A DNA stretch of 32,000 nt from Candidatus Heimdallarchaeota archaeon (lineage in GTDB: Archaea > Asgardarchaeota > Heimdallarchaeia > Heimdallarchaeales > Kariarchaeaceae). Below are positions 7,730 through 10,238 of the stretch, one piece after another. Position numbers and translations under genes: made by a program. Each line of letters opens with the position of its first letter. Positions within the stretch are counted from its first letter, which is position 1. The notes under the pieces were generated by a model. It ran no database searches and was not told the origin of the DNA. It saw only the letters and a list, made by a program, of their open reading frames with translations. Location of the stretch: positions 390,001-422,000 of the forward strand of contig JASBSB010000007.1 of the NCBI GenBank assembly GCA_030149205.1, given 5' to 3'.

Positions 7730-8248
7730 CTAAAGAATCTTGTTTAGTGTTATGATGATATCTCGAAAGAACAAACCAATAAGCAGAGAATTAAAAACAA
7801 TTACATAGATCAAAAAGACAGTGAGTGAAACATCTGCCAGGTACAACATTACTGCCCCTATTAACTGAAAAAAGCTCAAGATGAGGTATATCAGCAGTTT
7901 AGGGACGTGATGATCAGCAACACGTATGTGGTCTGCAAGTTCCCCGAGAAGTACAGGGTTTCTCTCCCTGACAAAGTACTGCCCACTTTCTGTTTTATCT
8001 ATTAGTTCAAAGTTCAACAATCTGTTCAGATGGTAAGAAGCCAGTGACGGTGTCCCAAACTCCAAGGCTCTCTGAATCTCTCTTACTCCAAATCTTACGT
8101 TTGGGCTATCTGCTAAGAGATAGTACACCTTTAACGTGTTTCCTCTGATTTTCTCTGCTATCAGGTTCTCATCTGGTGATTCTGGGTACAGTTCCATATT
8201 CTTGTTCATGTCAATAACCTTGGGTCTTGATAGATCACGTTCACCCAT
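7730..8248 (-). CDS. Membrane-tethered wHTH regulator (N-terminal wHTH plus 2 C-terminal TM helices), copy A
   Basis: GNTLKVYYLL...GVREIQRAL...TPSLASYHLNRL...GQYFV is an archaeal wHTH pattern followed by two hydrophobic helices. TGATG overlap with the upstream gene; paralog at 27233-27784. Confidence 0.85.
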   Translation of the reverse strand: MGERDLSRPKVIDMNKNMELYPESPDENLIAEKIRGNTLKVYYLLADSPNVRFGVREIQRALEFGTPSLASYHLNRLLNFELIDKTESGQYFVRERNPVLLGELADHIRVADHHVPKLLIYLILSFFQLIGAVMLYLADVSLTVFLIYVIVFNSLLIGLFFRDIIITLNKIL

Positions 8249-10182
8249 CAGAACCCCTCCACAGTCCTGACATAAATTCCACTGTTAACTGCACCTCGAA
8301 TCGAGAAGTAATCACCTGTGAATAAGATTGATTTCGTATTCGGAGATTGACTCAGTGTCACAATCCTATTTACAGATAACCCTCTTAAGTCTTGATTTTT
8401 AGGTGGTAAGGATAAACCATCTAATTGAGTCCATGATCGAAATCCTAGGAGAGATACATTTTTGGTGAGAAAGTTACCTTTAACCCCAAAACTTACCAGG
8501 CTTCTTCCATTTTGAGAATAAAAATTTGGTATTGATAAGAGATAGGTGTTGTTTATAATAAAGGATGTAGTAAAGACCGTCAAAATGAAATCAGCACCTA
8601 CATAACGTACAGAATATTCGAAATAAACTAAGTAAAAATCATTTGATGATATATAATTGTTGTTCAATAAACTTGTAGAGTCAACTAAATGTGGAAATGA
8701 GGTTGTTGTGTTCGCAAATGAGGCAAAATTGTTTCTGTGTGATTTAGTTGGATTAAAAATTGATAGCTGAAACATCAGATTTCCTCTGAAGTTATTAAAC
8801 TTTGTATAATTATACCATATTGATCCTTGCCAATAACTGAGGTTTTTGTAAAATCCATTGATATCTGGCCCAATAAAGACTAATACAAAAGAACCCTGTC
8901 TTTCTATAATTTTTAGATACTCCAAACTTCTTTTAATATTATAATCATATACAGGAAACAATTGCCAATACCAAGTTGTACCATTTTGAGGGTCTATCAA
9001 GACATAATCTGGCGTGTTTAAAGTAGACCCATTTCTAGCCTTCAGATTGAAAGTTCTTCCTTCACCCGTTATATGTATCATCCCTTTCGAATCTATGAGC
9101 TTAACATTTGTGTTAATCAGGCTAATAAATGACTGTTGATACAATCCTTTCTGAGATTCCCCCTGAATAACTTCTTTTAACCTTATTATCTTTGAAATAT
9201 TTAGGTTCGAACTAAAACTATGTTGCTTCATAGTGTCGTTAACTAAGTCAGAATTTCTGATTTTATTATAGAGTGCTGAGCTAACCACATAATATGTTTC
9301 ATTAGGAAACTCATATCTTTGGTTACGGTAATTCAAAACTCTTCGTTCATACATGAGCAAGAGATGAATGCTGTCGTACTCTTGAAACTGTGTAATGGTC
9401 AAATTTTGCGGGACATCTAAATAAATTGCATTTTTCATGGAAATCTTATTTAGGCTTTGGGTATTAACTGGTAAAATATAGTGGTAAAATGTCTCATTGA
9501 AAAACACGTTTTTGTAATTGACGGTATGTCTTACCCAGCCACTGTCACTTACAGTATTAAAGTGATATACGTCCTCATTAATAAGAATTAAGAGTTCTTG
9601 TTGCCCAAATTTAGTTAGGGTAAATTTATAGAACTTTGTATTGTTGTATTTGCTCGTAATGTATTTGTCACTCATTAAGTAAGGTCTGTCTACATAAGAC
9701 TTAGTGGTCGAAAATAGCTGGTGAGATTCAATGGTTTGTCTTGTTGCACTAAAGCTGTTTATGTAATAGGTTCTTTGTTCCGTTGTATTTATTAAATAAT
9801 TTTGATCAGACTGAGGACTGGTCGTATAAGTGGGAGTTGAAGAAATTATTGGACTTTGATTTATGCTACTGATTGGAGTCCAACTTTTGTTACTAATTGT
9901 TGAATTATTCCAACTTCCAATTGGAACTGTAGAAGAAGTCTTATTTAATTCCAAGAGGGTTGTTTTGGTATTAATAAACTCAGAAACCCAATAATTAGAA
10001 CTTCCGATAACTAATACGTTTGAGACTGGATATGTCGGGTTAGAAGCAATTGGTTTAGAGTTTGGATCAAGCATATCACCAAAATAGACCAATCCAGAAA
10101 CCAACAACAATGAAACAACAACAGCCGCTTTAGCTGTTCCTGTCGGAAAATTCACTAGTTTGATTGCACGAACTGCTTTCAT
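8248..10182 (-). CDS. Single-pass membrane protein with a large extracellular domain (about 600 aa), copy A
   Basis: N-terminal FPTG plus TM helix, Ser/Thr-rich linker, many N-x-S/T sequons. Clear paralog at 27786-29522. Confidence 0.8.
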   Translation of the reverse strand: MKAVRAIKLVNFPTGTAKAAVVVSLLLVSGLVYFGDMLDPNSKPIASNPTYPVSNVLVIGSSNYWVSEFINTKTTLLELNKTSSTVPIGSWNNSTISNKSWTPISSINQSPIISSTPTYTTSPQSDQNYLINTTEQRTYYINSFSATRQTIESHQLFSTTKSYVDRPYLMSDKYITSKYNNTKFYKFTLTKFGQQELLILINEDVYHFNTVSDSGWVRHTVNYKNVFFNETFYHYILPVNTQSLNKISMKNAIYLDVPQNLTITQFQEYDSIHLLLMYERRVLNYRNQRYEFPNETYYVVSSALYNKIRNSDLVNDTMKQHSFSSNLNISKIIRLKEVIQGESQKGLYQQSFISLINTNVKLIDSKGMIHITGEGRTFNLKARNGSTLNTPDYVLIDPQNGTTWYWQLFPVYDYNIKRSLEYLKIIERQGSFVLVFIGPDINGFYKNLSYWQGSIWYNYTKFNNFRGNLMFQLSIFNPTKSHRNNFASFANTTTSFPHLVDSTSLLNNNYISSNDFYLVYFEYSVRYVGADFILTVFTTSFIINNTYLLSIPNFYSQNGRSLVSFGVKGNFLTKNVSLLGFRSWTQLDGLSLPPKNQDLRGLSVNRIVTLSQSPNTKSILFTGDYFSIRGAVNSGIYVRTVEGF

Positions 10183-10220
10183 AAGTAGTTATTCTCACAC
10201 AAATACTTCAACCAACGCTG

Positions 10221-10238
10221 TTGAACACCCCTTGAACA
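10221..10238 (-). promoter_or_regulatory. Direct repeat TGTTCAA-N4-TGTTCAA upstream of module A
   Basis: ttgaaca at 10221-10227 and 10232-10238 on the + strand (11-bp period). The first copy begins 39 nt from the ATG, as in module B. Confidence 0.5.

Follow-up and report, generated by a model that had tools for sequence, protein, structure and literature searches.

The 32-kb stretch of a Candidatus Heimdallarchaeota archaeon genome analyzed here (G000:C8:390001-422000; hereafter the window, whose positions are used throughout) carries two copies, A and B, of a two-gene cassette. In each, a gene for a large protein with one predicted transmembrane (TM) helix is followed by a gene for a small winged helix-turn-helix (wHTH) protein ending in two TM helices. 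Judged from sequence comparisons, the cassette would pair a membrane-bound transcription regulator with a membrane protein encoded beside it, a combination distributed across the Asgard phylum. What is new here is that TGT(T/A)C sites are tied to these regulator-surface-protein cassettes. We somewhat favor the view that each cassette regulates itself and serves, as a self-contained unit, to express a surface protein. The parts of the two cassettes are as follows.

8248-10182, minus strand: large partner A, an open reading frame (ORF) of 644 aa, with FPTG at 10138-10149 and the predicted TM helix at about 10072-10128.
7730-8248, minus strand: regulator A, 172 aa, with LYP in the disordered tail and the predicted wHTH at about 7964-8149.
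7901-7963 and 7736-7900, minus strand: membrane-side parts of regulator A, namely the predicted linker helix plus hairpin and the predicted two-helix membrane hairpin, respectively.
27786-29522, minus strand: large partner B, 578 aa, with the same layout as in A.
27233-27784, minus strand: regulator B, 183 aa, with the same layout as regulator A.

An initial annotation of the window had described the same two-gene cassette as recurring twice. Both copies were confirmed, lying on the minus strand with regulators 48% identical (E 4e-49) and large proteins 28% identical (E 6e-47; 36% over the N-terminal 74 residues), but a third was found on contig C12 of the same genome (G000:C12), so that two is not the full number. 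The start of partner B was taken as the one aligning with A and with the third copy; its frame is open to 29624. The coupling of the two genes was likewise as described. In cassette A the regulator start and the partner stop have one base in common (TGATG), and in cassette B a 1-nt gap separates the genes. GGAGG recurs at the end of the upstream gene in both, as GGAGGGG inside the final codons of large gene A and as GGAGGG immediately before the gap in B. Among the six loci of the window's subfamily, no further conserved (third) gene of the cassette was found. In the third copy (L057:5557-5640), homology to the regulator N-terminal tail starts right behind the partner stop codon and no ATG, GTG, or TTG occurs before 5638; this copy has either lost the tail or starts at a CTG or ATA codon.

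The regulator was modeled with AlphaFold2 on 41 homologues (mean predicted local distance difference test, pLDDT, of 80). In order, the model has a disordered N-terminal tail, a wHTH (residues 37-92), a helix (99-105), a beta hairpin (107-116), and TM helices at 117-137 and 142-171 with a 4-residue loop between them, in keeping with the earlier description of two C-terminal TM helices with almost no external loop. Because only four residues join the TM helices, both ends of the protein would be cytoplasmic, with no part outside. The linker between the wing and the first TM helix (residues 96-116, 21 residues) consists of the helix and hairpin only. No domain beyond the wHTH, linker, and membrane hairpin was present in the model, and neither the model nor the Pfam scan revealed a sensing domain, as had been proposed. 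The linker motif, which had been called strongly conserved, is so within the subfamily, but family-wide only a Gly-x-hydrophobic pattern and Pro116 are left.

For the DNA-binding part, the recognition helix S-P-S-x-x-x-Y-H-L-x-x-L is almost invariant across the regulator alignment. The Pfam scan of the 41 family members gave HTH_20 in 19/41 and HTH_5 in 10/41, together with repeated matches to LexA_DNA_bind and TrmB. The window regulators themselves score under the Pfam and NCBIfam cut-offs, so all their ArsR/SmtB-type matches, including a weak NCBIfam match to SdpR, lie below curated thresholds. A search of the regulator profile against PDB sequences returned no match, and the best solved folds were CadC of pI258, ArsR, and SmtB (Foldseek TM-score by target about 0.6). 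In its fold, and in a recognition helix whose aligned motif is of the S-x-S-x-x-S-x-H-L-x-x-L type, the DNA-binding domain may resemble that of ArsR/SmtB proteins. Unlike those proteins, the regulators have no metal-site cysteines (regulator A has no cysteine in its sequence and no metal site) and carry a TM hairpin in place of the C-terminal dimerization helix; in the model, the region matching ArsR alpha5 is taken over by the linker and TM hairpin. The model thus supports a small protein that would be a membrane-tethered ArsR/SmtB-like wHTH without a sensing domain.

The large partner is predicted from its sequence to be an N-terminally anchored surface protein. A basic tail of ~18 residues and one hydrophobic stretch at ~19-37 are followed by ~600 residues, mostly beta strand. 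The outer domain of partner A is rich in Asn, Ser, and Thr, and N-x-S/T sequons number 19 in A and 16 in B versus 12 and 9 expected, all of them beyond the TM helix. No Pfam or NCBIfam family matched the large partner, and a word-based homology search with the large protein returned only itself. Its Atlas feature matches were weak (at most 0.81), hinting at sialidase/BNR-type folds. A beta-propeller outer domain had been suggested earlier; the best PDB matches were indeed 7-bladed propeller polysaccharide lyases, but with TM-scores of only 0.30-0.38, and given the low confidence of the AlphaFold2 model (pLDDT 52), these propeller-like matches are only a hint. The juxtamembrane FPTG, previously reported as conserved, is shared by A and B alone; of this motif, the third copy and the orthologues have no more than a hydrophobic residue and Pro. 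FPTG was also considered as a class III (prepilin-like) cleavage site, for which a conserved (K/R)-(G/A) directly ahead of the hydrophobic stretch would be expected. This was rejected because the motif is not conserved: Gly is not kept, and other copies read VPIK, IPSKK, and LPSKG. No peptidase gene was seen near cassettes A and B.

The two genes stay together. The genome has exactly three regulators and three large partners, and 3/3 of each are adjacent to the other. Co-duplication, raised as a possibility in the initial annotation, was borne out by the gene trees: in both, this genome's three copies group together to the exclusion of the same-genus orthologues (98/93 and 100/100), which indicates that the cassette was duplicated as a unit. 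Across the order, 41 homologues were sampled from 35 genomes, and in ~30 of them the regulator gene is preceded, on the same strand and with tight coupling, by a gene whose product has a single N-terminal TM helix, a layout found in only 12% of long ORFs in this genome. Independent gene calls gave the same upstream-partner arrangement. Loci without an upstream partner mostly have an N-anchored gene of DUF3160 size (~745 aa) directly downstream, or lie at a contig end. These counts support a regulator-partner pairing beyond chance. The expected adjacency across the family therefore held in that most sampled loci have an N-anchored neighbor, but the family of that neighbor varies. This variation appears to be ordered. 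In the regulator tree the partner family switches 8 times, where at least 7 switches are needed and shuffling gives 19.5 on average, supporting, on the basis of these trees, that regulator subfamilies follow partner families across the order.

About five partner families were distinguished in the order: that of the window, a 234-aa family, a 250-aa family, DUF3160, and metallophosphoesterase. A profile of the window's partner family detected it only in the four genomes of this genus and in a single further genome from the same family, always beside a regulator. By hhalign, it showed no relation to the 234-aa and 250-aa families, and these two show a distant relation to each other (probability 82%). 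The 234-aa core (tail, TM helix, and outer domain) remains intact when fused behind a NosD beta-helix, as would be expected of a signaling adaptor. Two such fusions were located.

L072:1686-4046 and L051:4422-6992: proteins of 786-856 aa in which the complete 234-aa partner is the C-terminal module, preceded by a NosD beta-helix and an extra TM helix.

Beyond the order, profile search detected the regulator family in 184/301 Asgard genomes, with up to ten copies each. A representative library contained 554 clusters at E <= 1e-10, whose named members are all Heimdallarchaeia, and a single-protein scan for related loci gave only two. In one large family of another class, the regulator is divergent from an N-anchored DUF3160 gene at 8/8 sampled loci; in another family of the same class, one conserved group (L087-L089) has no anchored neighbor. 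Two complete single-contig Loki/Prometheo-like genomes have yet another neighbor.

L101:3889-8501 and L102:3973-8501: regulator upstream of an N-anchored alpha-2-macroglobulin gene.

The position of the partner gene relative to the regulator thus varies by lineage (upstream, downstream, or divergent). The general feature is a class of N-anchored extracytoplasmic partner, not the specific protein of the window. Separately, two genomes of the order (L075:4424-5206 and L069:3351-4120) encode pairs of small RGG-like proteins, rich in Arg, Gly, and Tyr, next to regulator/DUF3160 loci.

In the window, cassette A has a candidate operator and cassette B a degenerate repeat upstream, as follows.

10217-10240, minus strand: candidate operator A, two TGTTCAA repeats with an 11-bp period, at 10232-10238 and 10221-10227.
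29557-29580, minus strand: degenerate repeat B, CTTTCAA-cccc-TTTCAAA, whose period is 10 bp and which lies immediately 5' of the TATA-like TTAAATTTT.

The repeats of operator A sit within a GCTGTT...AACAGC inverted repeat, ~40-60 nt upstream of the ATG and directly 5' of a weak TATA-like AAGTATTT (10201-10208), and they form the sole TGTTCWA site pair in the window. A common repeat spacing for A and B was rejected, as the periods are 11 and 10 bp and the cores differ. Cassette B also has a direct repeat, GATTATTTT twice (29583-29603, minus strand), immediately upstream of its degenerate TTTCAA repeats.

TGTTC(A/T)A half-sites, two or three per cassette, precede the start codon by 40-90 nt in 5/6 cassettes of the window's family. 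They read AGAACA-c-TGTTCT in the third copy, and the three same-genus orthologues have perfect 7-9-bp palindromes. Perfect palindromes occur in 4/6 of these cassettes versus 0.085% of upstream regions in the genome; at least two TGTTC/GAACA within 30 nt are found in 1.9% of this genome's upstream regions. When the other partner families were included, at least three TGT(A/T)C sites within 60 nt were present in 57% of partner promoters, compared with 6% of control ORFs from the same loci. The half-site variant follows the regulator subfamily, being TGTACAA, TGTTCTAG, or TGTTCWA. Promoters of the 234-aa family have TGTACAA three times with the last site abutting TATA, and those of the DUF3160 family have GTTCTAG/TGTTCT at the same place. 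TGTTCTA sites also stand between the divergent genes in the other class, and two such sites precede the TATA box of the alpha-2-macroglobulin genes in the Loki/Prometheo-like genomes. At regulator-first loci, the sites occupy the stretch between regulator and partner instead of preceding the regulator. In nearly all arrangements, therefore, TGT(T/A)C sites are on the surface-protein side, abutting TATA. As the regulator is the only gene common to all motif loci, it probably binds the TGT(T/A)C motif and would control the neighboring surface-protein gene. Because the sites stand before that gene whatever the gene order, the partner would be at least a regulated product, and the regulatory loop would appear to close within the cassette.

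Several points weigh against this interpretation. The motif was discovered post hoc and counted on the same loci, and these loci are related by descent, so that P values overstate the enrichment. The repeat upstream of cassette B is off the canonical TGTTC site, and in its subgroup the Metallophos gene has no canonical site upstream. In the proteins, TM segments were assigned by a crude hydropathy script. In addition, gene order is variable (operon, divergent, downstream), for which a plain regulator-target pair would be enough and contact between the two proteins is not required.

If each cassette is a self-contained autoregulated unit, an ArsR/SmtB-like factor tethered by its C-terminal two-helix hairpin to the cytoplasmic side of the membrane would act, presumably as a dimer, on TGT(T/A)C repeats or palindromes abutting the transcription factor B recognition element (BRE) and TATA box of the cassette promoter. 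Through this binding, the regulator would set transcription of the surface-protein gene and, where the two genes form an operon, its own. Since the regulator has no ligand-binding domain, its activity would have to be set at the membrane. The simplest route would be contact of its hairpin and linker with the tail and TM helix of the co-made partner, and such contact could provide feedback on insertion or occupancy, or relay a ligand bound outside. That the partner signals back to the regulator can be put forward only tentatively; translational coupling, one-to-one co-evolution, and the 234-aa core kept in fusions make it plausible. A complex prediction with the full regulator and partner residues 1-75, each with its own alignment, scored 0.00 without controls and speaks neither for nor against binding. 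More doubtful is the extension to a phylum-wide, one-step Asgard signaling mode, in which varied type II surface proteins would talk helix-to-helix to a sensor-less regulator on their own cassette promoter, without kinase, protease, or second messenger.

In a strict co-component sensor of the ToxR/ToxS kind, the partner would bind an outside ligand and switch the regulator, whose targets would lie elsewhere in the genome. The conserved sites on the cassette's own promoter argue against this, and TGTTCWA pairs genome-wide are no commoner than chance (17 found versus roughly 25 expected), so that no wider regulon is visible. Several partner families, moreover, are enzyme-like (Metallophos, DUF3160, NosD) and look more like a product than a receptor. 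We therefore consider such a sensor unlikely, even though it would account for a regulator without a sensor domain beside a large, external, fast-evolving partner, for the tight translational coupling of the two genes, for the co-variation of regulator and partner subfamilies, and for the 234-aa core retained in beta-helix fusions.

It is also improbable that the regulator alone senses the state of the membrane or envelope through its hairpin (lipid packing or secretion load, for example), with the surface protein only as its target. Divergent, upstream, and downstream orders are all found, which is typical of a regulator and its target, and the group L087-L089 is conserved without any anchored neighbor. 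In one genus-mate (L041:4479-5218, G001:C14), the partner is reduced to ORFs of 149 and 110 aa, and the regulator and upstream palindrome are intact. On the other side stand the strict 1:1 pairing and co-duplication in this genome, the fidelity of each regulator subfamily to one partner family, and the conservation of the partner tails and TM helices, which is at least as good as that of the outer domains. Finally, it is very improbable that the small protein is a membrane tether and not a transcription regulator, coupling for instance transcription, translation, and insertion of the surface protein: constant membrane anchoring, adjacent genes for membrane-inserted proteins, and the general ability of winged helices to make protein contacts would suit such a role, but the ArsR-type recognition helix is conserved and dyad or tandem sites occupy a fixed place beside TATA, as is typical of regulators.

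Neither the regulator family nor the pairing was described in the literature searched, in agreement with the initial annotation, which had not recognized a known system. The only studied membrane-bound archaeal transcription factor found in that literature was ArnR. ArnR/ArnR1 of Sulfolobus acidocaldarius are membrane-bound activators of the archaellum promoter (PMC6396743). Like the regulators described here, ArnR is archaeal and has an N-terminal cytoplasmic HTH and two C-terminal TM helices; it binds boxes upstream of a surface-structure promoter, and here the candidate sites precede a surface-protein gene (PMC6396743). However, the HTH and TM helices of ArnR are separated by a HAMP-like and a sensing domain, and those of the present regulators by just the 21-residue linker; ArnR is also crenarchaeal and without a co-transcribed anchored partner. 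No ArnR-like Pfam match was found among the 41 family members at E <= 0.01, and an "ArnR1-like wHTH" entry appeared only at rank 30 in the structural search.

The kinship with ToxR-type systems that had been suggested holds for the co-transcribed anchored partner, but not for the regulator, whose wHTH is ArsR/SmtB-like and which has no outer domain. ToxR/ToxS, TcpP/TcpH, and VtrA/VtrC share with the present cassettes a membrane-bound winged helix, a fast-evolving two-gene cassette, and an anchored external partner (PMC9214523). They differ in having an OmpR-type wHTH, a single TM helix, and a domain in the periplasm, where pairing with the partner takes place, whereas the regulators here combine an ArsR-like domain with a TM hairpin. 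An OmpR/PhoB-type wHTH (Trans_reg_C) was absent from the Pfam matches of the window regulators and the 41 family members. Gene order differs as well, with the partner downstream in ToxR-type systems and first in the window cassettes.

The closest functional analogy may be with the SigI/RsgI pairs of Clostridium thermocellum, which also form multiple paralogous autoregulated pairs with varied outer domains on a single-pass protein (PMC4711584, PMC10328401). The RsgI outer domains are carbohydrate-binding or enzyme-like, each paired with a cognate transcription factor. There, a soluble sigma factor is held by the anti-sigma N-terminal domain and freed by proteolysis, whereas here the factor itself would be in the membrane and the cytoplasmic tail of the partner has only about 15-25 residues. 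Some likeness may also be seen to SdpR/SdpI, in the autoregulated operon and the ArsR-type factor under membrane control. SdpR is an ArsR-family autorepressor sequestered at the membrane by SdpI. To our knowledge, archaea have no sigma factors.

The flanking genes of the two cassettes are distinct, as had been stated. Cassette A is flanked by a methyltransferase gene and by genes for two paralogous multi-pass membrane proteins. The latter lie directly upstream (10294-10983 and 11124-11867, minus strand; 229 and 247 aa) and have no Pfam family. Cassette B is flanked by a convergent gene for a 402-aa membrane protein and by two arrestin-domain genes. These two are paralogues in tandem directly upstream (minus strand, 29648-30484 and 30848-31693); each encodes arrestin N and C domains and a C-terminal CxxC...CxxC zinc ribbon. 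At 4134-6401 on the plus strand, the window also encodes a protein of 755 aa that combines NosD/right-handed beta-helix, fibronectin type III, and immunoglobulin-like domains. Outer domains of this kind are fused to regulator partners in other genomes; here the protein has no adjacent regulator.

Asgard archaea are the closest prokaryotic relatives of eukaryotes, and we know of almost nothing on how they link the cell surface to gene expression. The analysis yields a defined regulator family, a predicted operator beside TATA, and a predicted target in the adjacent surface-protein gene, which points to a so far undescribed link between events at the membrane and the production of surface proteins. 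If true, helix-to-helix signaling would give archaea their own version of sigma/anti-sigma and ToxRS logic, assembled from different components. The regulator family may also serve as a handle for finding lineage-specific surface proteins that standard annotation leaves blank.

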